From the NCBI GenBank assembly GCA_041600715.1, contig JBFIJM010000003.1, positions 3,345-67,344 on the forward strand: 64,000 bases of DNA. The letters are read 5' to 3'. Positions 9,273 to 44,868 of this stretch are shown here, in pieces. The DNA comes from Candidatus Saccharimonadales bacterium (GTDB lineage: Bacteria > Patescibacteriota > Saccharimonadia > Saccharimonadales > 2-12-FULL-41-12). A program made the translations under genes and the position numbers. A model generated the notes under the pieces. It was not told the origin of the DNA. It saw only the letters and a program-made list of their open reading frames with translations, and ran no database searches. Position 1 is the stretch's first letter. Each line of letters opens with the position of its first letter.

Positions 9273-9941
9273 ATGAAAAACATCATATGTATATTGGCAT
9301 TAATACTTATTATATGGTCGACGTGTGGTACGTCCAGAGCAGGCTCTTATAGAATCGATCCGTTTACAGGTGAACATCCTATCCGGTCAGAGATCGACAA
9401 TAGAATTTATAAAGTTATCGAATCATATGGTAAGGGTCCAAATGCGGTTGTCGGTGGTATGCCTAAAGACGCTGCGGACACATTGGCCAAGATGAATATT
9501 TTTCTACAAGGTGTCGTTGAATATATGAAGAACAAATATATCATACGCAAGGAAGGTTCTACAAATGATCAAGTTTTTGTAAAGCGGATGGTACGTAGGT
9601 ATAACCCCGATGTTGTTGTTGAAAACAATCCAGAAGGGGTAGAAAATACTAGTTTCGTTGTTAATAAAGGGGATACTATTGCATTTTGCCTGCGAGAGGC
9701 GACCTTTGGGACTGATCAAATCCATCAGATAAAAATATTAAAGTTCGTTGCCCTACACGAGCTTGCCCATATAGGGTCCAAACCATACGGACACGATGCG
9801 ACCTTTTGGTCTGATTTTAAGTTCATACTGCAAAATGCCGCAGAATCTGGTTTGTATAATCCGATCGACTACAATCAATTTCCTGATAGATACTGTGGAA
9901 TTGACATAACTTATAACCCTTTATTTGACGAGGCATTATAA
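9273..9941 (+). CDS. putative secreted or membrane zinc metallopeptidase (HExxH; WLM/DUF45-like context)
   Basis: N-terminal signal-like MKNIICILALILIIWSTCGTSRA; the active-site-like block is ALHELAHIGSKPYGHDATFW. Confidence 0.5.
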   Translation: MKNIICILALILIIWSTCGTSRAGSYRIDPFTGEHPIRSEIDNRIYKVIESYGKGPNAVVGGMPKDAADTLAKMNIFLQGVVEYMKNKYIIRKEGSTNDQVFVKRMVRRYNPDVVVENNPEGVENTSFVVNKGDTIAFCLREATFGTDQIHQIKILKFVALHELAHIGSKPYGHDATFWSDFKFILQNAAESGLYNPIDYNQFPDRYCGIDITYNPLFDEAL

Positions 9942-9956
9942 AAAAAATTGATTTTT
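9940..9956 (+). promoter_or_regulatory. extended early-type module A8-TTGA-T5
   Basis: aaaaaaaattgattttt overlaps the stop of the upstream gene; the TTGA core is 28 nt upstream of the ATG at 9980. Confidence 0.55.
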
Positions 9957-9979
9957 ACGGGACTAGTTAATGCCTTCTT

Positions 9980-10246
9980 ATGTCCAACGACACAAAGACT
10001 TTGGCTGCTTTGGCTGCTTTGACTGCTTTGGCAGAGTTTGCAAATGGAGATGATGTTAGCAACATACTTCTCAAATTTGCCGAGAAATGTGGAAAGCCTG
10101 GATTTGACCTTGTTTCATGTCGAACGTTTCTGCAAACAAGGCCTGGCGCGAATGTTCCTAACCACATAGTATTTATGCTGTTACAGATGTTGGACATCAC
10201 GTCGCAGACTATTCGCGAAACCAATGAGATGATCCAACGATATTAG
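9980..10246 (+). CDS. small hypothetical protein with an Ala/Leu/Thr-rich N-terminal leader
   Basis: 88 aa, MSNDTKTLAALAALTALAEFA... It is preferred over the antisense ORF 9967-10224 because of the sense-oriented TTGA module upstream and the T9 tract downstream. Confidence 0.5.
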   Translation: MSNDTKTLAALAALTALAEFANGDDVSNILLKFAEKCGKPGFDLVSCRTFLQTRPGANVPNHIVFMLLQMLDITSQTIRETNEMIQRY

Positions 10247-10254
10247 AAGTAGTA

Positions 10255-10263
10255 TTTTTTTTT
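10255..10263 (+). terminator. T9 tract
   Basis: It lies 8 nt after the stop at 10246 and 13 nt before the next ATG. Confidence 0.55.
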
Positions 10264-10276
10264 ATACAATTATATA

Positions 10277-13200
10277 ATGGATTTTTCTAACACTCCCATT
10301 AAACTGAATGTATATAATCGCCATGGAGATCTTGTAAAAATACATGTACTCCTAGGGCATGCCCCAGACGATGTAAGAAAAGCCATCATGCAATATAAAA
10401 AATCAAAATCTGGGACGAAGACGCTTGAGAAGTACTATGGGAAAGATTGGAAAGCTAAATTAGCATTCACAACCTCCGTCGATGGCGGAGGAAATAATGA
10501 TGACGATGACGATGACGGTGACGGTGACGATGACGTTGACGGTGATAGTGGTGAAGCCGCAATAACTGAACTAGAAAAGGTTGAAGAAGCTGAGAGCAAC
10601 TTTAATTTTGATTTCGAGGAGAGAATACCCAACTTAAAAGACGGTGTTGACATCGCCGATATTAGCCAAATAGAAACGGAACCTCATAACGTAACGCCTC
10701 CGTCGATCGTCGACCCCGATGAATATAATCATGTAACAAGAGCAACCGAACGAATACGTGACTCTAAACTCATTGGATCATCCGACTCCACATATAGTGA
10801 CCCTGAAGACGAAAGTCAAGAATCTACTTTATTAAGGGAAGTAGATGATATCTTGGATGGTAAAAAAATAAACCTGATCCAGGTTGGCAAAACTAAGACC
10901 CCTACCCCTACCCCTACCCTAATCGGTAAAGCCAGCATGCCCAGCAAATTCACGACCGTAGAATTCGTCGATATGTATGTTGACCCAAGTGATAATGTGT
11001 ATACATTTAAAAAGAAGATAAGCTTAATTCTTAACATGCCTATTTATAGGCAGCATATTTGGGTCTTACGTAATTCAATTACGCACCCTCTCAGTTACAA
11101 AATAGAAGTTGCATCTTCGTTAATCGATGTTGATATTCGGCAGATGATGAATTTTGAGGGTGAACAAGTTGAGAATATACCAATTATCCAAAAAAGTTAC
11201 CAAATGAAGGATGAAATCATAATAAAAGGATACGATTCATTCAAAATTATGGATTCTTATCTGCACCGTGGTGAGGTGTCGTTTAATGTAATTGATATAA
11301 ATGAATTTATGCCATCTAGAGATATCCTTAACACCTTTGCTAAGGATAAATATAAATTAGAGCTTGTATACTTTGGGTTTGTTATTCTATTCTGGCCGAT
11401 GATTACCTTATCAGTATTTTCAGAGTTTATTATTGGACCTATAGATAAATTCTACCCAGACCTCCATCCCGATGAAGAAACTTTGAAGAAGGGAATGCAG
11501 CTTAGTAACGATATTTTTGTCAATAGATCTGAAATATTATCTAATCCGGTCCGGCTAAACATGATTCAGTCAAAGTTAGAGAGTTCAATTACATACTCCA
11601 TGATAAGAGTGTCGTCGGAAATAGAGCAAATTGACATTTTATCGTTGAGGAATCTATTCGATTTACTCGAACTTTCCGCAATAATGCCATGGTGTAAATG
11701 TATTTTATCAAGAGATTACTATAGCAATTTTATCTTCGAAAAGACATTTCGAAATACCAAAGGTATCGGAGAAGTAATAACGACTCCGTCTGTGGTTATA
11801 AAATTGGTACCAGACGGAAAATCCGTCCAATACATGCAATTAAATATTTACTCCAACGGAAATTATACAATTAAATCTTTTTGGCGCGAAGAACAATATT
11901 ACGGATTTGATGACATACATAACGCTGTTGCTAAAATGGTAAATCCACTTCTTACCAAAATTAATAAATTACATGTGTTCTTCGATACACGCAGACTTAG
12001 ACTGATGGATAAAAATAATAGCAAATTTTCCGAGATTAATACCAGTATTTTTTATAGGCGAGCGATGACAGACAAAGAATTTATTAAATTAGAAAAACAG
12101 CTTCGAATATTCCAGGAAGCGGGGTTTATCGACGGGAAAGACTCGGACGGGAATACATTGGAGTATTATTTCACCAAAGGAATGTACCAACATGATATTA
12201 GTCGTATCGATAATAACATACAGACTAAGAATTACTACGAGTATTTGTCGGACGGAAATATTAAACAGAAATGGGATACCATTTTCCGCAAAACACGCTT
12301 AACCAAATTTATGCACAGATTTTCTGACGTTAGGATCGATATATCTGGAGTTAAAGAAAAAGAGTTCCCTATATTCTACGGATTAATAATTACCCTGTTA
12401 TATATGTACGAAAAAAATGCAGGCCCTTTAAAGAGTAAACCGGACCCTGGTGCGGATGATTCTGAAATAAAAGTAGCCAAAAAGAAACTAACCCATCTTA
12501 AAGACCAAGACCCGTTACTGTATGACTTTAAAAAAATATATAAATCTAATGTTATATATTCTAAGAAATGCCAAAAAGCTTACCAGCCATCGATTTTATC
12601 CAGGGACGAATTAGGTAAACTGACTGCTGGGCAGAAGAATAAAATGGTTAAGTATTGGAATTTTACAACGAATGAACCTGCTTATTATACTTGCCCGAAC
12701 CCAAAATACCCATATATAAAGTTCATGGTAAAGGAGCACCCTAAGGATTACTGTATTCCATGCTGTAAAAAAACCCCTGTCTCTACCGACTCCACGAATC
12801 CACGGACAATAATACACAATATATGCCTTAAAGACCATGTCTATGCTGCTGAGAAAAAAACTATAACAGTAGGGTCAAAATATATTATGTCATATGGTAA
12901 AGATGTAGAACAAGGGCGACTATCTAAGTTGCCAGAACATAGTATTGAACCATTGTTCTACGAGACATATTCTACAGAGGGGAAAGGTGGTGTTGATAAA
13001 GAATGTGACATATCAGATGGTTATTATATTTATGGTGTTAATCAAACTACACGAAGTATGAATAATGTTGGATATATTTATTGTATAAGTCATGGATTAG
13101 ATCGACCAGTGAGTGAGTTACTTCGGTTATTTTTGGATAAATTAGTGGAATCCCCGCATATATTCAAGATTTTGATCGGCGGAAAAACAACCTATTATTT

Positions 13201-20961: not shown

Positions 20962-23900
20962 ATGGACATCTTAATATTTAAACCCCCTGAGAAGAAGACA
21001 GAGGACACTACTAAGCCAGAAAGACAATTATATTATGAAAAATTGGCGGAATCTTCGAATATCGATTCGTACCATTTTGATTTTTTCTACAAAGAAGAGG
21101 TATGGGCCAGCGAAAATCGGATACCTGAAACAAACCTACCTCCGATTTTACTGAATTATATAGTGCAATTTTGCACACCAATCATTCAGAAAGATAAAAA
21201 TACCCCCTCAATTCCTGTACAGAATAAAATGCCTATAAGGGCTATCCACAATAATAGATCTATAATGATCCCATCGAATGAAGTATTTCATGTATCAGGA
21301 CTTTCACTACCATATAGAATTTATAAATACTCTGACCTATCAATTCCTATTTACTCCAGAGATTTAGGTAAACAAATCGCGGGGCTCGGGTACTCAGGCA
21401 TTTTAAGAAGCCATGATAGATATGTCAACGGGATACTTGGTAAATTTATACCGCAATACTTTAATGCTCCTAACATCATATTAAAACCCGACCAACCGGA
21501 AATATTACGTGATCTTATTGGAATTATAAGATACTCTCTGAATTATTTCGAGTCAACCATATCGTTAATGTCTACATATCTGTATCCAGGAGTATCGGCG
21601 GAGATATTTTTACCACCACCTGTGTATAATTATAATACAATCCTCGCCAAACAAACAACCAATCGAGATGATACTATTATTTTTAATAAATTAAATCTCC
21701 TAGGACCATCACATCCCAAAAGCAAGATATTACTATCTAGTATTAAAGCTATTGATGATATGAAAAAATATGATATTCAACAGAATAAACTAACCAGTAA
21801 GGATAGGAATGAACACTTGCTCAAACGTTCAATCGCTCTATCTAAATTCGGAAAAATTCAACTGGATGCCGGTCAGAAAAAAATCGTAGAAATTATCTTC
21901 AAAAGGATCAACTCATCAAAAAAAATAATGACTCCTCAAGTTGTTCTGGATCTAACTGCTGAGATTGAAGAAGGTGATATCAGATCCCTGGCAAAAATAG
22001 AAGGTATGGTTAAAGCCGGGCCTAATTCAAAACTTCTTGAAGCAAAAGACTTTCTTAAGATATCTTCACAAAATATAATATGCCCTCATGTAATTATTAA
22101 GGCAAGATTAATGCAAAATGCATCAAAAAATTCCAAGGTCAACGTCCATGGAGAAATTAGACAGCTGTTAATCGATCAATATTCATTGGTCAACGTGGAT
22201 GAAGGATATTTTTGCCGGATATGTGGGGAACTTCTAGCTGAGAACGAAAATGAAGAGTTAGTGATGTTTCTTGATGGTGATACAAGTGTCAATTTTGAAT
22301 TTGACCATTTAAAAACTGTTGTATGGAAAGAAGTAGCGCATATATTAACATCATTTGTTCGTTTTAAAGACTCTGTTAACCTTAAGATGATTGTTAAATC
22401 TATAACGGATTCTATACGAGAAGAGATAGGATTTATTGAAAGTACTCTACTAAAGATCAGAACGAATAGTAGCGATAATATCAATGATTTGATAGCCATA
22501 TATATAGCTATCTATACATATGCTATTGTGTGTCATATGATTTATAGTAATTATGGTAAAATCACGTTTTCCATCCGCAATTTTGCCCCGGTGAAGGGAG
22601 ATAGAGGCAAAGATAAAAATAAAGACAAGAATAAAGACAAGAATAAAGATAAAAATAAAGATGCCAAGGATGTACCATCCACTATAACAAAGCAAGTTGC
22701 CGACGCAGATGACGCAGATGACGAGGATGACGAGGATGACTCTCCACTCGTAAAGAAAACGGCTAAGAAAAAACTTGGTGGTAAAGAGATTTTACTAGGT
22801 AAAAAAGAAGATAGATTACGTCTTCAGAATATTTTTCAGAACGCCGTGTATCTTATTATTAAATCAAAGAATCCACTAATAAATCGCGTTAATAGTATTA
22901 GCTCTAATACAATACAACCATTATTAATCAAGGCATATAGGTGGGTTTTAACACTAAGAACATCAAAAATAGGTGAGGTTGTTAGAAAATCAGATATGTC
23001 ATACTGGTTGAGTATTGATCCAATTTATCATTACACATATTATATCCATCAGGTTGCCACCATAGCTGGCAAAGAATCGCCAAAGATAACAGATGTCGAT
23101 AAGCTCTTAGGAAAATCAGCCCAAGATATACAAGACCAAAAACTGGATTTATATGAAAATATTATCATACCTGGTCCAGAAACTATTAAAAATAAATACA
23201 TATATGATAGTTTTGTGTATGTAGCTAGGTATTGTAAAGAAAAATTATACAGTAAATCATTAGATTTCCAAGCTATTGATCTACAAAAAGAGTTTGAACA
23301 TATTTGGGCGCTGGAGAAAAATCTTGATGCTCGTAGAGAATTTAGCAAATTACGCTCCAGAGAGATTTATGAAAATAAATTACCTTGGACTCCACATGCG
23401 GTAGATCTCTCAAAAATATATTGCCCCGACGGGAAACTACATAAATTCGATATATACATATACCAACCCCTTGTTAAAGGGGTATTTAAAGGACCAAAAA
23501 AAGAATATACCATGCGACAAGTAGCTGCAAAATTAGAGGATGACGATACAAAATTTATGGAAGCCCTTGGTAAACTTGAAGTCATTGATAAACGATGCTC
23601 AATTTGTGATAGTATTTTATCGAAGACTCGCGAGGGTAATCTTCACCAAGTACTTGCCAAGATTGAGACCATTCAAAATTTCTACAGTTATTATTCGAAT
23701 AAATGCCCAGTAGAAGGTATACATAAATTTGATGTAGGTGATGCATGTGTAAAATGTAAATACACCTCAACTCTGGCTGAGACTAATGATAAAAAATACT
23801 ATGAAAAGTACTTTGGCAAATATAAAAAAAGTCTCGAAGTCGAACAAAAAATCACCTTATCGAAGGGTCAAAGTATTGTTCTAAAAAAACTCAACATGTC

Positions 23901-24711
23901 CCCCGGAAAAAAATATGGAAAATGGCTCCTGGATAATAAGAATATTATGTCCGTCGCTAAGATATTTAACGTCAAGCATAATATCTTATTTAACCTTGGG
24001 CTTAACGAAAACAGATCCTTTCGGGACGTGGAAAACGAGAAAACGAATAGATACATTGATACAACGAAAGGAGATGCTTTGTGGAGAAATCAACACTTAT
24101 ACAACTATTGTTTATTTATACTTCGCAAATATAATTTAATAAAAAATAGCGATAGGGTTATATTAAAGCATACGCTTAAGGATATTCGTACAAAACATAA
24201 ATTTGATCCTTCTAACCTCCCCGAGGTTAATGATGAATTTAATGAAAAGTATAGTTATTATAAAAAAACAGAGACATCAAAGACGTTGTCTAACTTTTTA
24301 TTGGACTTCATGTCAAGAGTATTACTTAAATTGTGGAAGTCGACTGCACCAAAAGCCTTTTCAAAAGATCTCGCTGAGTATTTAATCAACTCCATAATCA
24401 GTACGGAAAAACAAATAAGTAAGCCAGAATCTGATGAAATAGTTGTTTTCTCTAAGCAAGAGTCGTTTGTTGATATGGGATCGTCAAGCGAGGATGAATT
24501 TGAAGATGATGGTAACACAGAAATCCAAGACGCGCCCGATTTTGATGGTACTGAGACTGGATTGGATCGACTCGACGCTTCAAAAATCCAAAGCGCCACT
24601 GATGTTGAGGAAGATCAGGAGTATGAAGGAATAGACGAATTTCAGGCCGATATAGATCTTGACGACGATGATAAAGATAATATCGCTGCAGACGAAGTAT
24701 TTCGCGACTAA
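20962..24711 (+). CDS. large conserved-looking protein of unknown function with several CxxC pairs and an acidic tail. It could correspond to the ASFV M1249L minor capsid protein class, but this is untested.
   Basis: 1249 aa. Cys pairs include CRICGELL, CSICDSIL and CPVEGIHKFDVGDACVKCKY. (KDKN)n lies at 22609-22662. ttatatagtata abuts the ATG. I have no sequence memory of M1249L to compare. Confidence 0.3.
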   Translation: MDILIFKPPEKKTEDTTKPERQLYYEKLAESSNIDSYHFDFFYKEEVWASENRIPETNLPPILLNYIVQFCTPIIQKDKNTPSIPVQNKMPIRAIHNNRSIMIPSNEVFHVSGLSLPYRIYKYSDLSIPIYSRDLGKQIAGLGYSGILRSHDRYVNGILGKFIPQYFNAPNIILKPDQPEILRDLIGIIRYSLNYFESTISLMSTYLYPGVSAEIFLPPPVYNYNTILAKQTTNRDDTIIFNKLNLLGPSHPKSKILLSSIKAIDDMKKYDIQQNKLTSKDRNEHLLKRSIALSKFGKIQLDAGQKKIVEIIFKRINSSKKIMTPQVVLDLTAEIEEGDIRSLAKIEGMVKAGPNSKLLEAKDFLKISSQNIICPHVIIKARLMQNASKNSKVNVHGEIRQLLIDQYSLVNVDEGYFCRICGELLAENENEELVMFLDGDTSVNFEFDHLKTVVWKEVAHILTSFVRFKDSVNLKMIVKSITDSIREEIGFIESTLLKIRTNSSDNINDLIAIYIAIYTYAIVCHMIYSNYGKITFSIRNFAPVKGDRGKDKNKDKNKDKNKDKNKDAKDVPSTITKQVADADDADDEDDEDDSPLVKKTAKKKLGGKEILLGKKEDRLRLQNIFQNAVYLIIKSKNPLINRVNSISSNTIQPLLIKAYRWVLTLRTSKIGEVVRKSDMSYWLSIDPIYHYTYYIHQVATIAGKESPKITDVDKLLGKSAQDIQDQKLDLYENIIIPGPETIKNKYIYDSFVYVARYCKEKLYSKSLDFQAIDLQKEFEHIWALEKNLDARREFSKLRSREIYENKLPWTPHAVDLSKIYCPDGKLHKFDIYIYQPLVKGVFKGPKKEYTMRQVAAKLEDDDTKFMEALGKLEVIDKRCSICDSILSKTREGNLHQVLAKIETIQNFYSYYSNKCPVEGIHKFDVGDACVKCKYTSTLAETNDKKYYEKYFGKYKKSLEVEQKITLSKGQSIVLKKLNMSPGKKYGKWLLDNKNIMSVAKIFNVKHNILFNLGLNENRSFRDVENEKTNRYIDTTKGDALWRNQHLYNYCLFILRKYNLIKNSDRVILKHTLKDIRTKHKFDPSNLPEVNDEFNEKYSYYKKTETSKTLSNFLLDFMSRVLLKLWKSTAPKAFSKDLAEYLINSIISTEKQISKPESDEIVVFSKQESFVDMGSSSEDEFEDDGNTEIQDAPDFDGTETGLDRLDASKIQSATDVEEDQEYEGIDEFQADIDLDDDDKDNIAADEVFRD

Positions 24712-24720: not shown

Positions 24721-24728
24721 TTTTTTTT
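24721..24728 (+). terminator. T8 tract
   Basis: It lies 9 nt after the stop at 24711. Confidence 0.55.
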
Positions 24729-24738
24729 AATATACTCA

Positions 24739-25161
24739 ATGACATTGTATCAGGGTGAAGAAAAATATTCTATTGAAAAAATTGTAAATCATTCTGTGCC
24801 CTTTTTTAAATTTCTTCAAGATTCATCGCCAAAAGATCTTCGTAGAGAAATATCATGTTGTGGCATTGCTAACTCTACAGGTGATGCGTTTGACTTCTTT
24901 GTGTCCGTCAACGACGTTGATAAGCAAGAATTGCTCGATAATATGGGATTTTCTAGTCAAGTCATTCAAGTAATACATGTTTTTGAAGTATTCCGAGAGT
25001 CGTTTTTTCGCGAATGCGAAGATGTACTTGGAACAATGTCGATGCAGCGTAGAGATTTATTTGCTGAGTCGCCAAGTAAATATGTAGATTTATACATGGG
25101 ATTAACCAGACAAGAAAAAATAAAAGTTCTTACATGGGCGAGAGCTAAGTCAAGGACTTAA
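24739..25161 (+). CDS. hypothetical protein
   Basis: 140-aa ORF with taatatactca before the ATG. Its last codons are the seed of the downstream repeat array. Confidence 0.5.
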   Translation: MTLYQGEEKYSIEKIVNHSVPFFKFLQDSSPKDLRREISCCGIANSTGDAFDFFVSVNDVDKQELLDNMGFSSQVIQVIHVFEVFRESFFRECEDVLGTMSMQRRDLFAESPSKYVDLYMGLTRQEKIKVLTWARAKSRT

Positions 25162-25250
25162 GAATGCTAAGTCAAGAACTCAAGAATGCTAAGTCAAGAA
25201 CTTAAGAATGCTAAGTCAAGGACTTAAGAATGCTAAGTCAAGGACTTAAT
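25144..25250. repeat. 22-nt tandem array (gctaagtcaaggacttaagaat, 4.8 copies)
   Basis: Unit 1 is the last five codons plus stop (AKSRT*) of ORF 24739-25161. The array fills the gap to the convergent gene at 25252. Confidence 0.95.
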
Positions 25251-27180: not shown

Positions 27181-27699
27181 ATGAATACGGTAGCTGCAAA
27201 ATTTAAAGAGCAATTTAACCAGGTGCAAATAGCATATCTGGTTCAAAAATGCCGATGTGACTCAAGCACATGTACTAAATTAGGTCATTGGAGATATGAA
27301 CGTGAGGATGGCAAAATGGCTCCGATACCGTCTGGAAGATGTCTCACTTGTGGGTTACGACGCAGAAAGGTACTTGATGGAGATAATATAGATTGTTGTA
27401 TTACTTTCTACAAAAGTTTCCGCGACTGCGATGGATTCGAAGAAGGGTCAGAAAAAAATTACATATATTTTAACAATCAATTCCCTCCTCGGTGCTCATT
27501 AGACTGGTTTAAAACTCCGACATTTATTAGTATTGATGACGAAGTGCCGATAGTCGGATCGAGCTTTAGACCCGATCGTTCCATCGGATCGAGCTTTAGA
27601 CCCGATCGTTCCATCGGATCGAGCTTTAGACCCGATCGTTCCATCGGATCGAGCTTTAGACCCGATCGTTCATGTCATCCGGGTTACGTTCGTCAGTAG
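27181..27699 (+). CDS. Cys-rich hypothetical protein with a (GSSFRPDRSI)x4 tail
   Basis: 172-aa ORF. Its tail is encoded by the 30-nt array that overlaps the convergent gene. Confidence 0.5.
   Translation: MNTVAAKFKEQFNQVQIAYLVQKCRCDSSTCTKLGHWRYEREDGKMAPIPSGRCLTCGLRRRKVLDGDNIDCCITFYKSFRDCDGFEEGSEKNYIYFNNQFPPRCSLDWFKTPTFISIDDEVPIVGSSFRPDRSIGSSFRPDRSIGSSFRPDRSIGSSFRPDRSCHPGYVRQ
27555..27673. repeat. 30-nt tandem array (cggatcgagctttagacccgatcgttccat, 4 copies)
   Basis: The last copy contains the stop codon and final codons (..DRV*) of the minus gene 27656-29263. Confidence 0.95.
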
Positions 27700-29440: not shown

Positions 29441-30208
29441 TTAGCAAAGACCAAATCCGTCGCCGCCGTCGCCGTCGTCGTCGTAGTCGTCGCCGTCGTC
29501 GTCGTCGTAGTCGTCGCCGTCGTCGTCGTCGTCGTCGTGGATGTAGATGCACCACTGGAAAAGTTCATCCTCAGTAAATAGCGCGTTTTCGTCGTTTGGA
29601 ACAGGAAAACTACCAAAATTGCAATATTGCCTTTCAGAGTCCAGTTCCCATTCAAAATGACCACTTTCAGAGGAAGTATCCATCAACTTGACAACTTCAT
29701 ATAATGCTTTACCAATTGACTTGTTATCTTCCATCGTAGTCTTACATGGTCCATTATTCCGATGAAAAAGTCTGATACAGAAAGGTACGAACAATCTATC
29801 GTATGTTTTTTGGAGATCTTCCCGATGCATGTTAACTATGACCAACGCTTCTGCATGCGTCATGTTGCAAGGATACATGTTGTCTTTGGGATCATTCGAT
29901 TTCCAACAGGCTAAAGTATGCCTTCCACTACGGCATCGTGGATCAACACAATATGAATGGTCATCTTGAATCCATATGGGGAAGACGGTAGAGGAGGTGG
30001 TAGAGGAGGTGGTAGAGGTGGTAGAGGTGGTGGTGGTGGTAGAGGTGGTGGTGGTGGTGGTGGTGGTAGAGTTGATGGTAGAGTAGTAGGTGGTGGCGGT
30101 GGTAACGGTGGTGGTGGTGGTGGTGGTGGCGGGGTCTTGAACCCCGGAAGCGGGCGCCGCGAGGGCGGGGGCTTGGGCCGTAGCCAGCGAAACGATAGTG
30201 GTAGCCAT
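29441..30208 (-). CDS. mucin-like Thr-rich protein with a Cys-containing domain and poly-Asp tail; member of the leader family
   Basis: MATTIVSLATAQAPALAAPA.. is followed by about 45 aa of Thr/Ser and ends DDDDDDGDDYDDDDGDDYDDDGDGG. The ORFs 29271-29664, 29957-30508 and 29961-30239 are shadows. Confidence 0.6.
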   Translation of the reverse strand: MATTIVSLATAQAPALAAPASGVQDPATTTTTTTVTTATTYYSTINSTTTTTTTTSTTTTTSTTSTTSSTTSSTVFPIWIQDDHSYCVDPRCRSGRHTLACWKSNDPKDNMYPCNMTHAEALVIVNMHREDLQKTYDRLFVPFCIRLFHRNNGPCKTTMEDNKSIGKALYEVVKLMDTSSESGHFEWELDSERQYCNFGSFPVPNDENALFTEDELFQWCIYIHDDDDDDGDDYDDDDGDDYDDDGDGGDGFGLC

Positions 30209-30227
30209 CGTCAGGCATTACTAACGC

Positions 30228-30248
30228 AAAAAAAATCATTTTTTTTTT
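30228..30248 (-). promoter_or_regulatory. A10-TGA-T8 (sense) combined terminator and promoter module
   Basis: The plus strand reads aaaaaaaatcatttttttttt, between the stop of 30267-30896 and the ATG at 30208 (core 27 nt upstream). Confidence 0.55.
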
Positions 30249-30266: not shown

Positions 30267-30896
30267 CTATACAACCGCATCGTTTGACAGCAACTGATAC
30301 CACGGATCAGCATTGCGTCTGCACTGAATCGCTCTGGCAGTCCCCTCGTGGCATATACATAAATCGACACCGGAACAACTACATCTACATGTTACGCTAT
30401 TACCATTGCATGTGCACGCCAGTATTTGCATCCTGCCGGGACATTTCCATTCGTTACATGCTTGACATATGGATAACGGGCATATGTCAAGCAGGGGCTG
30501 CGGATTGAATCCTGGGCGACGATCATCAAAATGACCCATAGCCATAGTCATTTGACACGGATATTGTGACCATCTGCTCAGTATGTAGATTGTCTTTCCC
30601 AACCCCAATCTCATATGTTTCCTATCTGCGTGTATCTGTTTATATCGGTCAGGTTTAGCATGTGAGTTGGAGAGAAACGTTCGTCGGTCCTGCATTGCTA
30701 CAGCTAAAGCAATACAGAATTCCGTAAATGTTTGACTCGTTTTGTCGACAGGTTTGACATAATCGGAGTCATAACCGGAGGCATGGTCTCCCCAAGAGGG
30801 TATAGCTGGCTTTCCCAAAAGGAATTCACTTTTGTCGCTATAGTCCGCGGAGGCGCTGGCTTGGGCCGTAGCCAGCGAAACGATAGTGGTAGCCAT
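30267..30896 (-). CDS. Cys-rich protein; paralogous leader family member
   Basis: It starts MATTIVSLATAQASASA (13 aa identical to the neighbour). The C-terminus has 17 Cys (CPLSICQACNEWKCPGRMQILACTCNGNSVTCRCSCSGVDLCICH). Confidence 0.6.
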   Translation of the reverse strand: MATTIVSLATAQASASADYSDKSEFLLGKPAIPSWGDHASGYDSDYVKPVDKTSQTFTEFCIALAVAMQDRRTFLSNSHAKPDRYKQIHADRKHMRLGLGKTIYILSRWSQYPCQMTMAMGHFDDRRPGFNPQPLLDICPLSICQACNEWKCPGRMQILACTCNGNSVTCRCSCSGVDLCICHEGTARAIQCRRNADPWYQLLSNDAVV

Positions 30897-30915
30897 CGTC
30901 AGGCATTACTATTGC

Positions 30916-30933
30916 AAAAAAAATCAATTTTTT
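30916..30933 (-). promoter_or_regulatory. A-rich-TTGA-T8 (sense) module
   Basis: The plus strand reads aaaaaaaatcaatttttt, 27 nt upstream of the ATG at 30896. It sits in the 46-nt divergent gap shared with the gene at 30943. Confidence 0.55.
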
Positions 30934-30942
30934 ATTTATATA

Positions 30943-31515
30943 ATGCGACGTAGACGGAGACTATTATTATTGGCACTTCCCCTGCCATTCATAGCATTAA
31001 TTCCGTTTAATGGCGTCGAATATGTTCGAGATTTCCGAGTTCATACTCCTTTAATAATGCTTGCAATTTATTCGGTGTTGCTTAATTTTCCTTCTATCGT
31101 AAAGTCTTACTACGGTAAACCAGTTTATTATGAAGACTTAGAAGACGATCGATATGTTAATGTTGCATATCGCAAAAAGTTTCAGGCAGTTTTTATAACG
31201 ATAGGTCAACTTTGTTTATCATTTATGTTCGCAAGTCTTATTTACTACTATATACACAAATATCACATAAATAGATTTAACGTACTCGAATTATGTGGAA
31301 TCATAGGTGGTTTTATGAGCTTCATATCGAGGATCTTTAGCGGGATTAAATTTGTGCTTAAAACGTGCTATTATATAAAAAAAAATACGTCAACTACTCT
31401 TAATAGTTCCAAGAAATACAAAATATTGTTCAAGATGAGTGACATTGATATTGGATCTACACATGACCAAAATCAAGACATTATAGATCTGGAAGGGGTC
31501 GAGGCAGTTAAATAG
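30943..31515 (+). CDS. multi-pass membrane protein
   Basis: The first ATG is at 30943 (MRRRRRLLLLALPLPF..) with atttatata before it; there are at least 3 hydrophobic helices. Confidence 0.55.
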   Translation: MRRRRRLLLLALPLPFIALIPFNGVEYVRDFRVHTPLIMLAIYSVLLNFPSIVKSYYGKPVYYEDLEDDRYVNVAYRKKFQAVFITIGQLCLSFMFASLIYYYIHKYHINRFNVLELCGIIGGFMSFISRIFSGIKFVLKTCYYIKKNTSTTLNSSKKYKILFKMSDIDIGSTHDQNQDIIDLEGVEAVK

Positions 31516-37203: not shown

Positions 37204-37224
37204 ATTAATAATGATAGATATATA

Positions 37225-38145: not shown

Positions 38146-38147
38146 TA

Positions 38148-38828
38148 TTAAAATGGATGATCAATAACATAGACTGGTGTAAGATATCTATTTTTTTCCA
38201 TCTCACTAAGTCCACAGATCCACGACAAGGCAAGAAATGGTGGATCATCGAGCAGAGATATTGGCAAAACCCCTAGTTTTATCAAACTTAGTATGGATAT
38301 CTCCGCGCAGTTTGTCCCCATGTCAAACTGTTTTATACCACATTTATTCTGCAAACAACTACTGAATACATTGTAATTATACGACATATTTTTATGCGCG
38401 TAATTGATGAAATGCCTGAAGTTATCGCAAATCGACTCCGGAATAGGTCGCTCTAATTCCTTATAAAATACATAACCCTTGTATTTGCGTATGCGGTTTT
38501 CTAGGGGTGTGAGAAAAATACCATTTGCGTTATGATGTTGTAATATTGGCATGTCGGTTGTACCTGCAGCCTCAAATAAATAAGGAGTATAAGTGTCAGC
38601 GCAAGGGTCGACCCATACAATTCCTAAATGTCCATAGTATGAACCAAAAAACATAGCATTAACATTATTTAATGCATGGAATAAGATCATGTCGCCTGTC
38701 TTAAATTTTCTTAACTCCCGTAGCTGTTCGTAATGCACTTCGCCGAATGACGGGTGGTATAATAAAAAATACCACATCCATGTTAGAATTATTGTAATTG
38801 TTATGATGATCCCCCATGACCACGACAT
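38148..38828 (-). CDS. membrane-anchored NlpC/P60-superfamily (YiiX / peptidase C92-like) papain-fold protein
   Basis: FKTGDMILF..SYYGHLGIVWV..FEAAG and a later TNCAEISILSLI fit the permuted His ... Cys pattern. The track start is a TTG; the ATG is at 38828. Confidence 0.45.
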   Translation of the reverse strand: MSWSWGIIITITIILTWMWYFLLYHPSFGEVHYEQLRELRKFKTGDMILFHALNNVNAMFFGSYYGHLGIVWVDPCADTYTPYLFEAAGTTDMPILQHHNANGIFLTPLENRIRKYKGYVFYKELERPIPESICDNFRHFINYAHKNMSYNYNVFSSCLQNKCGIKQFDMGTNCAEISILSLIKLGVLPISLLDDPPFLALSWICGLSEMEKNRYLTPVYVIDHPF

Positions 38829-38978
38829 AGAGTGTAAGATTATACACAATATGTGTCAAATCTTTAACATGTCAAATATTTTTTATTCTATCCCGCTCTG
38901 AATCACCTCACCTACGCCAGCTCTCTTCAAAAAACATAAATATCCCAACATTCCTAATAAGGACCATATCTGGTCAGC

Positions 38979-38992
38979 TAAATTTGAAATTC
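38979..38992 (+). promoter_or_regulatory. TAAATTTGAAATTC motif upstream of the primase-helicase gene
   Basis: The TTGA core is 41 nt upstream of the ATG at 39029; tatattatatac is also present closer to the ATG. Confidence 0.45.
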
Positions 38993-39028
38993 AATTATAA
39001 ACTATAGCACTTATATTATATACGGACT

Positions 39029-42000
39029 ATGCCAAGATCTAAAGGCAATGTTTCTAAATCCCTTAAATCCATACCCAAGGATGACGACGAAACTCGCGAA
39101 GATGTTCATCATATAGTATTTTCCGAGTCTGACACGGATGACGAAATTGATAAACCCGTAAGGAACGAAGTAAAGTCCAGAATTCAAGAGGCTACAAGTA
39201 CGATTTTGAGGATTTTTAGAACATTCTTGAATAAACCTGATTACATTAATCCACCAAAAGACCCATCAACAAACATAGTCGACCGATCAGTGGGAAAATG
39301 TTACAATATACCATCTAGAAAAATACATAAATTCTTCAAATGTCTCGACGAATGTAGACGGACGAATCTATCAATGATGATGTATGAAAAACAATTAGAG
39401 TATTCAGGTATTATGGATGATTTTGATATAGGTCAAGACTGTAGAGTTAGTCAAATTACACATATCCATTTCCACAGATACGCCGTGAGGAAAATCAAAA
39501 ATCTCATCAAGTATGTCGAATTTCCTCTTAACGTCAAATCATTGGAAATATACATTGGGTTTATCCAGAAACCCCGTCCAGTTTTTAAGGATGATAGAAG
39601 CGCGTATTACGATGGGTTCCATGCACTAATCCCAGGTATTCAGCTAACCCGCGCGGCTAAACGATTTATTAACCAAAAATTTATTGAAGACGGCGATGTT
39701 CGAAGTATATTTCATGATTTTACACTCGCTGACGGAATTACTAAAGACGATTTGTTCGATATTAATAGTGCTCATGTTGGTGTACATTTTGTCGGATGTA
39801 GCAGTAAACCAGGCAAACCTGCGTATAAATTAAAATGGGTGTATCGGTGTAAAGTCACTATCGATCCAGATGATGTTGTACCTGTTCAATGTAATGACGT
39901 GTTTTTAGAGTCGAATTCTGTAAACATATGTCATGAATTTTCCCTAAACTGGGAGCGAAGCGAAGAGAAGGGTGGTATTATTCGTAAAAAGCAGTATAAC
40001 TTAAAAGAGGAATACATGAAGTATATCTCTAACGATGGGAAGACAAGAGTTGACGATGTTGAAAACGAATTCTACGACGAGGGGTTGTCTCCTATAGATA
40101 ACGAACTGTCATTACTAAAATCTCGAGACCCTGAGGCTGGCTTTATTAAGAGTATGTTAGACATTCTCAATCCAGAAAGAGCTATTGAGTATAATGAATG
40201 GTGGGAGATTATGCGAATCTTAGCCAAGCTATCTCCATCGTATAAACCTTTGGCTAATTACTTCAGTCAAAAAAGTAAAAAACATGCCGAAGCTCCTTCA
40301 TATGAATCAATGTTTGACAAAAAATGGGAGGAAGCGCTTGCATGTAAAAGTAAAGTTACAATTGGCACACTACATTTCATAGCTGAGCGGGATAACCCAG
40401 ATGCTTACAAGGAAGTACGCAGCAGAAGTATATATAGCATATTGCATCGACAAATATACACACAACGATCCGAAGGTATCCTTGAGCATAATGTAATAGC
40501 CAAACTATTGTTTAATATGATTGGGCATAAATTTGTACATGATAAACCAGACGGGATGGCGCGGGGGAATTGGTATGAATTTATAATTGAAGGAGACCGT
40601 ATGAAAAAGGGGGAAATCTATAAATACAGACCATATGATGGTAGTAAACCTAAATCTATGCTGCGATACATCTCTGACCAGCTCCCACCGTTCTTTGAGA
40701 AGACTTTGATGAAAATTAAAGACTCTTATGAGGCAGCCGATGGGAACTTAGCGAAATACTATTCGCAAGTATACAAAAATTTTCAAAGATCATGCAGAAA
40801 CTTGGAGAATCGAACATATAAAAAAGCCGTCGTTGAAGAGTGTGAGAGTGAATTTGAGATGGTTGGATTCTCTGATTCCCTAGACACAGACCCATTAATT
40901 CGAGGTGTTGGTAATGGTATTTTATCTCTAAAAGATAAGCCCAAGCTCATCACTGGATTCCACAGCTACAAAGTTTCAAACTACACATCTACTGAGTTTA
41001 AACCATATAACCCATATGACCCGATTCAGAAAAAAGTATTAATAGCGCTTCGCAATTTATTCCCTGATGACGAGCCCGATTCGCATAATTTTACAATGTG
41101 TTACTTTGCAAGTACTTTGGATGGTCGCCCAAAAGATAGTGTATTTTTGATGATGGTGGGTGGTGGTAGTAATGGTAAATCCTTTCTTATTGAATTACAT
41201 AAAGGTGCCATTGGTATGCATTATGGTATGACTATGGACCCTTCATTCATCTTGGCGTCAAAGGGTAGAGACTCTGAAGCCGCAGCCCCATTACTTTTGG
41301 CGTTACAAAAAGTCAATTGGGTGGCTTTCTCAGAGACGGACCGACTTGCTGTATTGAATATTAGTAAGATTAAAAGGCTGACTGGTGGAGATACACTTTC
41401 TGGAAGGTATAACTATGGGAATAAAAACATTAATTTTAAACCTAAATGCCATTATACTTGCTGCTCTAATCATGATTTTGAGATTGATGGAACTGATCAT
41501 GGTACTTGGAGAAGAATGCTTTATGTAATTTTCAAGATGAAGTTCTGTCAACTGTGGAAGGGAGAGACTTATGATCCACAAAATATATATGAAAGGGTCG
41601 CTGACCCCGATATGGGAAAGGGTTGGACAGAAGATCCAGACATACTCGCTGGTTATTTTAGCATTATGTCACATTACTATCATAAACTTCGCACAAAATA
41701 CGGAGGGAGTGTAATAAATGTTCCGCACCCACATATTAAGGCAGATACTGAGAATTTTCGCAATCGTCAGGATAAAATTAACAACTTCTTATGTACTTAT
41801 TTAGTTAAATTACCTGAGGTAGAAACTGAAGAGACGATGGATAAAATGGCCAAAGCCAAAGCAGAGGTCAAGGCAGAGGCCAAAGCAGAGGCCAAAGCAG
41901 AGGCCAAAACAGAGGCCAAAGCAAAAGCAAAAGAAGAGCCAAAGAAAAAAATCTTTAGGATGCAATCAATGTCGGAGATTGCAGAAAAATACATCAAATG

Positions 42001-42721
42001 GCATGAAAGTCAATATCCAGGGGCTAACAAAAACTACTTGAAAGGATTGATTAGCCAATTGGAAAATTCACAAATCTCCAAGTATCTCAAGCGTACACGT
42101 CGAGGCAAATTTCTGATCGGCTACCGTATATTGAATATTAATGAGGCAAAGGAGGACGATGAAGAATATTTTTCGAAGACAGCATTTAGCGATAAAAAAT
42201 ACGAACATGGTGTTGTTTCAGAGAATGCTGAACAATATTACAAAAGACTCTGTAAGGAATATGATGAAAACTGCGCCAGAGAGAAAGCCGCTAAGTCTAA
42301 GGATAGTAAAAGTAAAAAAAATAGTACTTTTACCCCTGCGAGCTCAAATACCTTTGGACCAGATTTTAGAGTTGTACGTAGGAAGGATAATATTGACGCT
42401 GATGAGGATTCTGGTTCAGATATTGATCTTACGTTAGCGGCTAAAAAAAATCCGAGTCTTGCTGAACAAAGACAAAGAAGACGTCAGTTAAACCTTAGCA
42501 GTTTAAATAAATCAGTATTAAAAACCGATCCTAAATCAGGAAGGTCGATGCTTACATTCGACCCTATTGACGCAGCTAAAAAAGCAAACGTTCACGGTCG
42601 TAAGATTGTACAGTCAATGATGTTTAACGATGACGATGACGACGATGAGGATGAGGATGACGACGATGACGATGACGATGAGGATGAGCTTGTGATTGAT
42701 CTTGATACAATAATTGTATAA
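39029..42721 (+). CDS. D5-type primase-helicase (ASFV C962R class)
   Basis: AEP primase motifs MDDFDIGQD and DGFHALIPG. SF3 helicase Walker A VGGGSNGKS and Walker B VAFSETD. It carries an (AEAK)n insert at 41849-41932 and a poly-D/E tail. Confidence 0.85.
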   Translation: MPRSKGNVSKSLKSIPKDDDETREDVHHIVFSESDTDDEIDKPVRNEVKSRIQEATSTILRIFRTFLNKPDYINPPKDPSTNIVDRSVGKCYNIPSRKIHKFFKCLDECRRTNLSMMMYEKQLEYSGIMDDFDIGQDCRVSQITHIHFHRYAVRKIKNLIKYVEFPLNVKSLEIYIGFIQKPRPVFKDDRSAYYDGFHALIPGIQLTRAAKRFINQKFIEDGDVRSIFHDFTLADGITKDDLFDINSAHVGVHFVGCSSKPGKPAYKLKWVYRCKVTIDPDDVVPVQCNDVFLESNSVNICHEFSLNWERSEEKGGIIRKKQYNLKEEYMKYISNDGKTRVDDVENEFYDEGLSPIDNELSLLKSRDPEAGFIKSMLDILNPERAIEYNEWWEIMRILAKLSPSYKPLANYFSQKSKKHAEAPSYESMFDKKWEEALACKSKVTIGTLHFIAERDNPDAYKEVRSRSIYSILHRQIYTQRSEGILEHNVIAKLLFNMIGHKFVHDKPDGMARGNWYEFIIEGDRMKKGEIYKYRPYDGSKPKSMLRYISDQLPPFFEKTLMKIKDSYEAADGNLAKYYSQVYKNFQRSCRNLENRTYKKAVVEECESEFEMVGFSDSLDTDPLIRGVGNGILSLKDKPKLITGFHSYKVSNYTSTEFKPYNPYDPIQKKVLIALRNLFPDDEPDSHNFTMCYFASTLDGRPKDSVFLMMVGGGSNGKSFLIELHKGAIGMHYGMTMDPSFILASKGRDSEAAAPLLLALQKVNWVAFSETDRLAVLNISKIKRLTGGDTLSGRYNYGNKNINFKPKCHYTCCSNHDFEIDGTDHGTWRRMLYVIFKMKFCQLWKGETYDPQNIYERVADPDMGKGWTEDPDILAGYFSIMSHYYHKLRTKYGGSVINVPHPHIKADTENFRNRQDKINNFLCTYLVKLPEVETEETMDKMAKAKAEVKAEAKAEAKAEAKTEAKAKAKEEPKKKIFRMQSMSEIAEKYIKWHESQYPGANKNYLKGLISQLENSQISKYLKRTRRGKFLIGYRILNINEAKEDDEEYFSKTAFSDKKYEHGVVSENAEQYYKRLCKEYDENCAREKAAKSKDSKSKKNSTFTPASSNTFGPDFRVVRRKDNIDADEDSGSDIDLTLAAKKNPSLAEQRQRRRQLNLSSLNKSVLKTDPKSGRSMLTFDPIDAAKKANVHGRKIVQSMMFNDDDDDDEDEDDDDDDDDEDELVIDLDTIIV

Positions 42722-42731
42722 TTGTTATACA

Positions 42732-42747
42732 TTTTTTTATAAAAAAA
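42732..42747. terminator. T7-AT-A7 bidirectional module
   Basis: tttttttataaaaaaa lies 10 nt after the D5 stop. The A7 serves the convergent gene ending at 42826. Confidence 0.5.
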
Positions 42748-42755
42748 TATATTAT

Positions 42756-42812
42756 GTAGGAGTATATGTAGGAGTATATGTAGGAGTATATATAGGAGTA
42801 TATATAGGAGTA
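42756..42812. repeat. 12-nt tandem repeat (gtaggagtatat, about 4.7 copies)
   Basis: Direct reading. It is intergenic between convergent genes and produces the shadow ORF 42624-42854. Confidence 0.95.
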
Positions 42813-42825
42813 AACAGTCGAAAAC

Positions 42826-43887
42826 TTACTGAGGAAGGGACGCAACGAGATCATTCTTGCGCTTTTTCAAATCATTAAGTTGCTGCGGAATAGCTGCGAA
42901 TTTTGATTGGAGTAATGTGAAACCAGACTGAGTCAAGTTATATTGAGCGGTAACACTTTCGAGTTTTCGTTCAGACACCGCAAGAATACCAATGTGGTAT
43001 TGTCTTCTCGCAGTCACCACCAACTCGGCCTGAGTAACGGCTGCCTGAGCGTTAACATATGCTTGACTGCTCCAAAAGGTGTTCTTCAGCGTATTCAACT
43101 CATCGACAGACTGTTTGAGCAAATACATAGCCTGATCAGACTTACCAAACAGAGCAATGCCGTGTGCGAGCAATGAGCTCGCATTGGCCATATTTTGGAT
43201 ACACTTGACGTACTCATCGCTCGTTTGAAACTGAACCAACATGTTATGCAAGACAAGCTGAGCCTCATCGACGTCGCCGATACACTCGCGCATAACCTGA
43301 TCGCACGTCAAGAGAAGACGATTGTGTTTGCGTTCAGCAGACTTCCTATCATGTGCATGTCGGTTCAAGGCATCGCGGATTTCTTCCGATACAGCTTGCT
43401 GAATATACACGTTCTTTATGTCGGTTTCCAGGCTGGTTAACTGGCGCCAGACGACACAAGACTGAATGGGCAAAGTTGGTGGTGCATTTGGAACAGGGGA
43501 GCGAGGAAGAGGAGGAGGTGATTGAGAGCGAGGAAGAGGAGGTGATTGAGAGCGAGGAAGAGGAGGTGGTAGACGGTGGGAGGTCCGGAGTAAGTCAAGA
43601 AAGTGCTTAACATCGCTAGCAACACTCGCATGGATAGGATATTTCCTATCGATTGTGTTAATGTCCTGAGTATGTGCGATCGAAGAGGAGATCGGAGAGG
43701 AGATCGGAGAGGGTATGGAAGGAGAATATGTCGCTACACGAGACAAATCCAAAATAGATTTGGCGAGTTCCGCGCGTTTTTCCTCGGAACTTCGGGAATC
43801 TTCGCCATCCGGTACCTTACCGACCGGAGGCGTGGCGGCATGGCCAGAAATAAATTTCTGGTCACCGAAAGCAGCTTGAGCAGACAT
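42826..43887 (-). CDS. hypothetical helical protein with a Pro/Ser repeat (PPLPRSQS); leader family; GC-rich
   Basis: The track start is a TTG at 43923; the ATG at 43887 gives MSAQAAFGDQKF... The extended TTGA module lies upstream. Confidence 0.6.
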   Translation of the reverse strand: MSAQAAFGDQKFISGHAATPPVGKVPDGEDSRSSEEKRAELAKSILDLSRVATYSPSIPSPISSPISSSIAHTQDINTIDRKYPIHASVASDVKHFLDLLRTSHRLPPPLPRSQSPPLPRSQSPPPLPRSPVPNAPPTLPIQSCVVWRQLTSLETDIKNVYIQQAVSEEIRDALNRHAHDRKSAERKHNRLLLTCDQVMRECIGDVDEAQLVLHNMLVQFQTSDEYVKCIQNMANASSLLAHGIALFGKSDQAMYLLKQSVDELNTLKNTFWSSQAYVNAQAAVTQAELVVTARRQYHIGILAVSERKLESVTAQYNLTQSGFTLLQSKFAAIPQQLNDLKKRKNDLVASLPQ

Positions 43888-43921
43888 CACTAATAAAGTG
43901 GTCCGGTAAGCGTTAATTAGC

Positions 43922-43951
43922 AAAAAAAAATCAATTTTTTTTTAAAAAAAA
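43922..43951 (-). promoter_or_regulatory. T8 + A9-TTGA-T9 (sense) terminator and promoter module
   Basis: The plus strand reads aaaaaaaaatcaatttttttttaaaaaaaa, between the stop at 43981 and the ATG at 43887. Confidence 0.55.
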
Positions 43952-43980
43952 CGGAGTATAATATGTGGTGAATACCAAAC

Positions 43981-44832
43981 CTAAGAACGATGTATCGCAA
44001 GGAACGGAGTTTTTAGCAGCTCATTATAAAGCTTTTGTTTTTCTGCGAGACGTTGCTGGGCTTCCGATTGCCTAACTTGAGCGTCCTCCGAACAACTGTT
44101 GCATCTTCGAAATGCAGCCAGGTCACGGCCTACCTCTGCATTGAGCTCGGTTATGCGTTTTTGGTGACGATCATTGGCATCGGTCAAAAATCCCTTCGCT
44201 AACACCACAGCATCATGGGCAGTCACAACACGCGGGTCAGTGTCATTGCCGCAGCATTGCTGGGCACGTTCTAAGAATCGAATATCGCCATCTAGCTTTG
44301 CTTGAAGTTTTTTTAACTCTTCGGAACAAACAGCTGGGTAATTAGTTAGCTTAGTTTGAGAACTATTGAGAACATGCGCGGCTGCAACCAGTTCCTTCTG
44401 ACGGGCCATAAAATGTTCAGTACAATTGCACTCATCTAAATGGGCATACCGCATGGCTCGCAATGCATTCGCAACTTGCACCCCGAACCCTTTGATTTCC
44501 TGGAGGGTTGGGATATCAGGAGTTGCGGCGATGGACGACGTGGTGGGGGACGACGTGGGGGAGGACGACGTGGTGGGGGACGACGTGGGGGAGGACGACG
44601 TGGGGGAGGACGACGTGGTGGAGGACGACGTGGGGGGAGAATTGGAGTGTTTGCGATCTAATCCAGAGTCTTGGTCAGTTCGCACGATATTTCGTGCGAT
44701 ATTCAAATCTTTCTGAAGATCTGCTCCCCGGGTAGTGATAGGAGGACGAGTGCTTGGGTCAGCACCCGTGGAAGCAGGTCGCGCGGAGGCGCTACCGAGG
44801 GTCGAAGGCTGAACAATGGTGAGACTTGCCAT
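43981..44832 (-). CDS. hypothetical helical, Cys-containing protein with an (SSPT) repeat; leader family; GC-rich
   Basis: MASLTIVQPSTLGSASARPASTGADPSTRPPITTRG.. The ORFs 44426-44735 are shadows of the repeat. Confidence 0.6.
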   Translation of the reverse strand: MASLTIVQPSTLGSASARPASTGADPSTRPPITTRGADLQKDLNIARNIVRTDQDSGLDRKHSNSPPTSSSTTSSSPTSSSPTSSPTTSSSPTSSPTTSSIAATPDIPTLQEIKGFGVQVANALRAMRYAHLDECNCTEHFMARQKELVAAAHVLNSSQTKLTNYPAVCSEELKKLQAKLDGDIRFLERAQQCCGNDTDPRVVTAHDAVVLAKGFLTDANDRHQKRITELNAEVGRDLAAFRRCNSCSEDAQVRQSEAQQRLAEKQKLYNELLKTPFLAIHRS

Positions 44833-44847
44833 CGAACTTTATTGATT

Positions 44848-44868
44848 AAAAAAAATCAATTTTTTTTT
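44848..44868 (-). promoter_or_regulatory. A9-TTGA-T8 (sense) module
   Basis: The plus strand reads aaaaaaaatcaattttttttt; the core is 23 nt upstream of the ATG at 44832 and downstream of the stop at 44906. Confidence 0.55.

Follow-up and report, generated by a model that had tools for sequence, protein, structure and literature searches.

What does a near-identical element, an A-run and a T-run joined by a central TTGA, do in front of five genes in a 64,000-nucleotide stretch of contig JBFIJM010000003.1 (the stretch at its full length is called the window here)? A preliminary description of this DNA had reported an A8-TTGA module at five positions, each aimed at the adjacent gene, and had proposed a co-regulated family of effector or surface proteins that begin with cleavable leaders. 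Our analysis indicates that the module is most probably a strong-consensus copy of the early-gene promoter of nucleocytoplasmic large DNA viruses (NCLDV), here in an uncultivated virus related to Asfarviridae. The identity of the element with this known promoter had been missed in the earlier account.

Position, enrichment and orientation of the module

The module takes the form A(6-10)-(T)TGA-T(5-9), and its five copies in the window were all recovered at the coordinates given in the preliminary description, with TTGA pointing at the neighboring gene in every case. Module 1 (9940–9956, + strand; A8-TTGA-T5) overlaps the stop codon (TAA) of the gene before it, at 9273–9941. The remaining copies lie on the − strand and comprise module 2 (30228–30248; A10-TGA-T8), with a core that reads AATGA and not ATTGA; module 3 (30916–30937; AAATA6-TTGA-T8), in which the A-run is interrupted; module 4 (43922–43943; A9-TTGA-T9), with a separate T8 just upstream at 43944–43951; and module 5 (44848–44868; A9-TTGA-T8). 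With one AATGA core and one interrupted A-run, "A8-TTGA" is therefore a slightly idealized description of an element that is nonetheless present. A search of the window for AAAAAATTGATTTT with at most one mismatch returned exactly these five sites (0.35 expected; 0 of 100 shuffles reached five), and allowing two mismatches added just two unrelated sites that do not resemble promoters. Genes in the window are dense and occupy both strands (58 open reading frames [ORFs]; intergenic share, 6.6%). All five modules are intergenic and face an ATG 23 to 43 nt past the TGA. The core is the octamer AAAATTGA in four of the five copies and AAAAATGA in the other. Two hallmarks of an NCLDV early promoter were found, namely, an A-rich run with a (T)TGA core and an intergenic position facing a gene. 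A sixth copy (L002:3124–3151, − strand; AAAAAAAAATGATTTTTTTT then TAGTCAATGCTTACC) was found just beyond the left edge of the window, on a short contig that overlaps it (position 3877 of L002 corresponds to window position 651); the capsid gene lies about 3.3 kb to the right of this copy.

The tie to gene starts extends well beyond this DNA. The exact 18-mer A7TTGAT7 occurred in more than 120 IMG/VR stretches, many of them named GVMAG. Read in the TTGA direction, an ORF of at least 60 amino acids came next in 78% of cases and an ATG lay 25 to 60 nt away in 61%, compared to 28% and 10% in the reverse orientation and 25% and 7% at random positions. Because the excess of ORFs is confined to the TTGA direction, the module is a directional, widely used promoter form that is not peculiar to this contig. 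Within the window, co-regulation of the five genes is very likely, since they have in common a cis element that points at them; this portion of the original proposal was borne out, whereas a protein family with shared leaders was not supported, as discussed below.

Viral lineage of the window

The virus sequence was placed on a 69.5-kb public contig and, judging from its encoded proteins, its source is an uncultivated NCLDV (giant virus) related to Asfarviridae. The major capsid protein matched those of faustovirus (1e-85) and African swine fever virus (ASFV; p72, 1e-69), and its closest relative shared only 56% identity. An ORF at 20962–24711 (+ strand; 1,249 aa) is homologous to ASFV M1249L and of equal length (PDB 8xy6 chain I, 6e-20); M1249L is RNA-polymerase-associated in PDB 8xy6, and the homologue provides a useful lineage marker. 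The window also encodes a D5-type primase-helicase and a mimivirus-type poly(A) polymerase, and small Zn-ribbon ORFs with early promoters resemble RNA polymerase subunits (by eye only). The presence of the capsid protein, the M1249L homologue, the poly(A) polymerase, the D5 primase and the RNA-polymerase-like small ORFs is what would be expected of an NCLDV with its own transcription apparatus. No tRNA genes were found in the window.

A second element and the layout of the probable promoter

A second conserved element was found 12 to 13 nt past TTGA, at a fixed distance from the core. It reads TAGTTAATGCCT, which is initiator-like, in module 1 (9964–9975, + strand; 12 nt after TTGA), TAGTAATGCCT in both module 2 (30213–30223, − strand) and module 3 (30901–30911, − strand), TAATTAACGCTT in module 4 (43908–43919, − strand) and ATAAAGTTC in module 5 (44834–44842, − strand), and in the sixth module on L002 it reads TAGTCAATGCTTACC. 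The 9-mer ATAAAGTTC recurs at an equal 13-nt spacing after TTGA in the ordinary early promoter of the gene at 27181–27699. On its own, TAGTNAATGCYT was not enriched in the window (4 matches versus 2.9 expected), and its significance depends on the fixed spacing to the core. The module genes are without the TATATAC-type element that is common in this virus, where TATAYA or ATATAC was found within 30 nt of the ATG in 37 of 58 ORFs, often after a T7–T9 run (such sites lie 5 to 15 nt before ATGs, e.g., at 640–650, 10263–10276 and 24725–24738), and A4+(T)TGA within 75 nt of the ATG in 12 ORFs. In two relatives of this virus (contigs L003 and L005), ATATAC lies about 15 nt past AAAA(T)TGA; because the same ATATAC trails the early-type core there, it may be a start-site element common to promoter classes rather than a purely late motif. 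The upstream neighbor of module 3 is a divergent gene (30943–31515, + strand), and the A-run of this module, read on the + strand as TTTTTTATTTATATAATG, supplies a T-run plus TATATA upstream of that gene. Tandem arrays with periods of 12, 7, 20, 22 and 11 nt were also observed in, or mostly in, intergenic DNA (42753–42812, 46651–46722, 59289–59414, 25144–25249 and 3090–3155, respectively). Several of these arrays lie directly upstream of genes, including a 20-nt unit repeated 6.3 times, which contains TATATA and precedes the gene at 58334–59290.

If the module is an early promoter, the A-run plus (T)TGA would form its upstream element, equivalent to AAAATTGA, to the early promoter motif of ASFV and to the upstream control element of vaccinia virus. 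By analogy with those viruses, this element would be bound by a virion-packaged early transcription factor (the D6/A7 heterodimer, or D1133L/G1340L in ASFV) that recruits the viral RNA polymerase, and the T-run would serve as a T-rich spacer past the core. The second element (TAGTAATGCCT, TAATTAACGCTT or ATAAAGTTC) most likely holds the transcription start site, giving 5′ untranslated regions (UTRs) of approximately 10 to 30 nt, a placement suggested by the spacing in vaccinia virus, invertebrate iridescent virus 6 (IIV-6) and ASFV. The five genes, together with the sixth outside the window, would then constitute an early class of lineage-specific, repeat-rich proteins, probably engaged in host interaction. 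As a secondary role, the T8–T9 of the module may also stop read-through from the upstream gene.

Several observations weigh against the early-promoter interpretation. Four related contigs were fetched (capsid proteins 52 to 54% identical; roughly 55 kb sampled), and the T-run form was absent from them; these contigs have AAAA(T)TGA followed by ATATAC about 15 nt later, and because the ordinary form alone was seen in this sample, the extended module is not clade-wide. No gene for an early transcription factor (VETF) could be recognized in the window, where the large ORFs checked for it were a DEAH helicase, the M1249L homologue and a 1,496-aa protein without assignment. The second element matches the ASFV early initiator TA*NA poorly. 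Furthermore, three of the second elements contain an out-of-frame ATG (ATGCCT) 10 nt before the main ATG (9970–9972; 30216–30218, − strand; 30904–30906, − strand), which is awkward unless transcription starts at or after it. Lastly, early timing, the start site and factor binding are features that we infer. It is also worth noting that the frame opened by the upstream ATG at 30216–30218 runs for 85 codons and reads the Thr tract of the gene behind it as poly-His.

Genes behind the module and the duplicated cassette

The proteins encoded behind the five modules differ in length and composition. The + strand gene, g9980 (9980–10246; 88 aa), has a GC content at third codon positions (GC3) of 0.45 and is followed by a T9 run 8 nt past its stop codon. 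The others, all on the − strand, are g30208 (29441–30208; 255 aa), with a Thr tract, a globular part and an Asp-rich tail (GC3, 0.56; globular part, 0.39); g30896 (30267–30896; 209 aa), with a Cys-rich C terminus (GC3, 0.46); g43887 (42826–43887; 353 aa), in which Pro/Ser repeats precede a nonrepetitive Ala/Gln/Leu-rich C-terminal part that may be a coiled coil (GC3, 0.46); and g44832 (43981–44832; 283 aa), with Ser/Thr/Pro repeats (GC3, 0.49). The gene behind the sixth module (L002 2527–3075, − strand; 182 aa) encodes a Cys-rich protein that is RING-like by eye and starts MSDKKHLASD (GC3, 0.47). The public annotation of 29441–30208 has only a 140-aa product (P0130) that begins at an internal Met; the position of the putative promoter supports the 255-aa long form over this shorter one.

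The GC3 values of the six module genes were the highest observed (0.45 to 0.56; the other genes averaged 0.34 ± 0.04 and did not exceed 0.43), and the globular parts retain a real but modest excess (0.39 to 0.51 against a window mean of 0.34). The excess was considered, and rejected, as evidence of a foreign origin, much of it coming from codon-homogeneous repeats (ACC, GAC and TCC). Searches returned no homologue other than the query itself for g44832 among 5.8 billion proteins, for g43887 among 1.84 billion representative proteins, or for the globular part of g30208. Scans of IMG/VR gave nothing for g44832 or g43887, and the module proteins had no significant match in Pfam. Since the module proteins tested are without homologues, no comparison of orthologous promoters is possible. 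In an all-against-all BLASTP comparison of the module proteins, g30208 and g30896 were alike only over their first 17 residues, and no other pair was significant after composition correction. These two adjacent genes start within copies of a 92-nt direct repeat (30157–30248 and 30845–30936, both − strand; 91% identical) that comprises promoter, 5′ UTR and first 17 codons, and as modules 2 and 3 both fall within it, they are not independent of one another. A paralogous early multigene family of the ASFV type was rejected, as there is no full-length homology among the members, and the surface-protein family of the preliminary description is likewise unsupported, its proposed members not being paralogues beyond the 17-codon cassette. 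Four of the products had also been singled out as low-complexity. Such tracts do not distinguish the module genes, as about 26 of the 58 ORFs have in-frame tandem repeats of 6 to 54 nt (PK, DG, SFRPDRSIG and others; the count is our own reading of 53 Tandem Repeats Finder arrays). This virus has tracts of low complexity throughout its genome.

Alternative explanations for leaders, similarity and T-runs

The N termini of the five proteins, which had been quoted exactly as they read, are richer in Ala, Ser and Thr than any others in the window (0.40 to 0.65, compared to 0.20 ± 0.10 in the other 53 ORFs; Mann-Whitney P = 1.3e-4), and AxA-like motifs (AQA, ASA and ALA) occur at positions 11 to 18. 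That they are cleavable signal or organelle-transit peptides of a secreted, surface or organelle-targeted effector family is nevertheless improbable, given that neither hydropathy nor charge fits. The best 10-residue Kyte-Doolittle means were 0.40, 0.88, 1.51 and 1.51, with a moderately hydrophobic stretch in g9980 reaching 2.35, whereas genuine signal or transmembrane N termini in the window score 2.5 to 3.9 (e.g., MKNIICILALILIIW of gene 9273). Net charge over the first 25 residues was −3, −1, −2, +1 and 0, so only one of the five leaders is positively charged; in g30208, neither Lys nor Arg appears before about residue 85. The hydrophobic core of approximately 7 to 15 residues that comes after a neutral or positive N-terminal region in a Sec-type signal peptide is thus lacking, as is the net positive, acid-poor, hydroxylated segment of approximately 20 to 60 residues of a transit peptide. 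Two of the leaders are one duplicated cassette, and the LAALAALTALA stretch of g9980 is encoded by a 9-nt tandem repeat (9999–10032). The N terminus of g44832 looks like a diverged copy of the same 17-codon cassette, with which it has MA..TIV...SASA and a 12-nt run of AGCGCCTCCGCG in common, a likeness that also counts in favor of a shared leader. Such a leader is, however, missing from g43887 and from the sixth module gene (MSDKKHLASD), and an Ala/Ser/Thr-rich N terminus was not seen in any of 89 genes that follow the module in other viruses; the module proteins are otherwise unrelated. The apparent leaders are for the most part a side effect of a single local duplication and of genes that are rich in repeats and GC-richer. 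Duplication might also be invoked for the modules themselves, their similarity then reflecting only recent local copying without selected function. The 91% identity of the 92-nt repeat, the 27 nt that modules 4 and 5 have in common at 96% identity and the arrangement of module genes in tandem pairs would all fit. Yet the module is near letter-perfect where coding sequences outside the cassette have no detectable similarity, g9980 and the L002 gene lie several to tens of kilobases away, and more than 100 unrelated giant-virus contigs make the same directional use of the 18-mer in front of genes, all of which makes this account extremely unlikely.

The preliminary description further suggested that one element might both terminate and reinitiate transcription. 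In such a scheme, the T-run would terminate the upstream co-directional gene, as ASFV poly(T) does, and the A-run/TTGA would restart transcription. Sense-strand runs of at least seven T are strongly avoided in coding sequences, as would be expected if they were ASFV-type terminators (2, versus 78 for A; for runs of at least eight, 0 versus 21), an asymmetry far above the difference in base composition (A, 0.34; T, 0.28), and a run of at least seven T lies within 80 nt past the stop codon of 19 of the 58 genes. Because T-runs are avoided in sense and found after stops, they seem to terminate transcription here as they do in ASFV, in which poly(T) tracts mark the mRNA 3′ ends and early genes have the longer tracts. 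The abundant A-runs in sense could, for their part, stop antisense transcription. An ASFV-type terminator would be a sense-strand run of at least about 5 to 7 T soon after a stop codon. A co-directional gene precedes four of the five window modules (five of six with L002), the T8–T9 lies 29 to 50 nt past the upstream stop in three window copies, and the module T8 is the first run of at least six T past the stop for 30267–30896 (module 2), 44906–45361 (module 5) and L002 3181–3819. Module 3 nonetheless has its T8 without any co-directional upstream gene (although it is a duplicate copy), module 1 has only T5 and module 4 has its own separate T8 upstream. In IMG/VR, forms with and without the T-run followed co-directional genes at similar rates (54:25 for the T-run form versus 64:25 for the ordinary one; P = 0.74; contigs mostly of other lineages), and the ordinary early-promoter gene 27181 follows a co-directional gene without any T-run. 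A dual role of this kind is therefore possible rather than probable. The module also reads almost the same on both strands (two mismatches on the opposite strand), which raises the question of whether it is an AT hairpin, of RNA or DNA, marking mRNA 3′ ends and not a promoter, in the manner of the mimivirus "hairpin rule," whereby a hairpin signals polyadenylation at mRNA 3′ ends. The copy at 30228 would fold at −10.6 kcal/mol (z = −4.0), and a similar A8-TA-T7 lies between convergent genes at 4581–4597. The other four copies range from 0 to −4.5 kcal/mol (z from +0.8 to −1.5), and a 3′-end hairpin was rejected on these folding energies. The asymmetric TTGA always faces a gene, and its orientation predicts a downstream ORF elsewhere (78% versus 28%), which a symmetric hairpin would not do; a hairpin signal is thus very unlikely. 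The A8-TA-T7 itself, which resembles the promoter module in shape, separates genes 3814–4578 (+ strand) and 4625–4918 (− strand) and looks like a back-to-back pair of poly(T) terminators.

Significance of the module

Taken as an early promoter, the element is of a known kind, in a long-consensus form that drives a few lineage-specific, repeat-rich genes. Three features are mildly new: a downstream element other than the usual one, an association with GC3-richer genes that lack homologues, and a duplicated cassette of promoter plus 17 codons. Its value is mainly for annotation: it marks the window as that of an Asfarviridae-related giant virus that uses the early promoter conserved among NCLDV, has a TATATAC-type element beside most other start codons and probably terminates at poly(T), and it singles out five or six genes specific to the lineage that are likely to be early and are candidates for host interaction. 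It also adds one more lineage to the evidence for an ancient and widespread early promoter of the AAAATTGA type, and no new regulatory mechanism or protein-targeting signal is revealed. A bolder interpretation, which we consider rather unlikely, is that the five genes and the sixth on L002 define a candidate "immediate-early" promoter subclass in this lineage, built from a long A-run, (T)TGA, a T8–T9 with an added role as terminator of the upstream gene and, where ATATAC would usually stand, an initiator of the TAGTNAATGCYT type. This subclass would mark young, GC3-richer genes without homologues and could be copied onto new genes as a cassette of promoter, 5′ UTR and first 17 codons, as the 92-nt repeat suggests. 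If true, it would offer a giant virus a route for placing new or acquired coding sequence under strong early control.

Comparison with known viral promoters

Suhre et al. 2005 reportedly gave AAAATTGA as the early promoter of mimivirus. As in mimivirus and pacmanvirus, the module lies in intergenic DNA and faces its gene from a few tens of nucleotides before the ATG, and the octamer core is identical in four of the five copies. About half of the genes of mimivirus and 44% of those of pacmanvirus have AAAATTGA upstream; in pacmanvirus, a TATATA motif of the late type and, at the 3′ ends of genes, a T-rich motif are also present (PMC11788076, PMC5294985). The same coexistence is seen here, with a TATATA-type motif at most other ATGs and a T-rich 3′ motif. 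The present core differs from that of mimivirus and pacmanvirus in being flanked by unusually long homopolymers (A6-10 and T5-9), and a distinct second element replaces the ATATAC found after ordinary AAAA(T)TGA sites of this virus and its relatives. The likeness to both viruses is one of sequence, from which expression timing here is inferred.

ASFV belongs to a related lineage, as judged by the capsid protein and M1249L. Its early promoter motif lies 9 to 10 bp upstream of the start site, is proposed to be bound by D1133L/G1340L and is highly conserved upstream of early multigene families (PMC7163114, PMC7458399). Transcription in ASFV terminates at poly(T), and early genes have such tracts more often and in longer form (Cackett et al. 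2020, PMC7163114). The bipartite layout is shared, with an upstream A-rich/TGA motif and a downstream element at a fixed distance, as are poly(T) tracts that follow genes and are avoided on the sense strand of coding sequences. In ASFV, the best-conserved copies of the motif drive fast-evolving early multigene families; unlike these, the module genes do not form paralogous families, save for one common 17-codon cassette, and their second element is not a TA*NA initiator. Start sites and 3′ ends have been mapped in ASFV, whereas those of the module genes are predictions from sequence.

The early upstream control element of vaccinia virus is AAAAAATGAAAAAAA, and its early terminator is T5NT. An A-run followed by a TGA core is common to vaccinia virus and the present module, the AATGA variant at 30228 being the closest, and in both the T-run appears as a terminator that is avoided within genes. 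Past the TGA, however, the sequence is A-rich in vaccinia virus and T-rich here, and vaccinia virus terminates some 40 nt downstream of its signal in a factor-dependent manner. A T-rich continuation is known from IIV-6, whose DNA polymerase promoter, AAAATTGATTATTTGTTTT (−19 to −2), has the same core and then T-rich sequence (cited in PMC5294985). Although that stretch is interrupted and not a homopolymer, and comes from a single characterized promoter in a different virus family, it lies directly past AAAATTGA and reaches the start site, which makes it the closest published match to the T-run half of the module.

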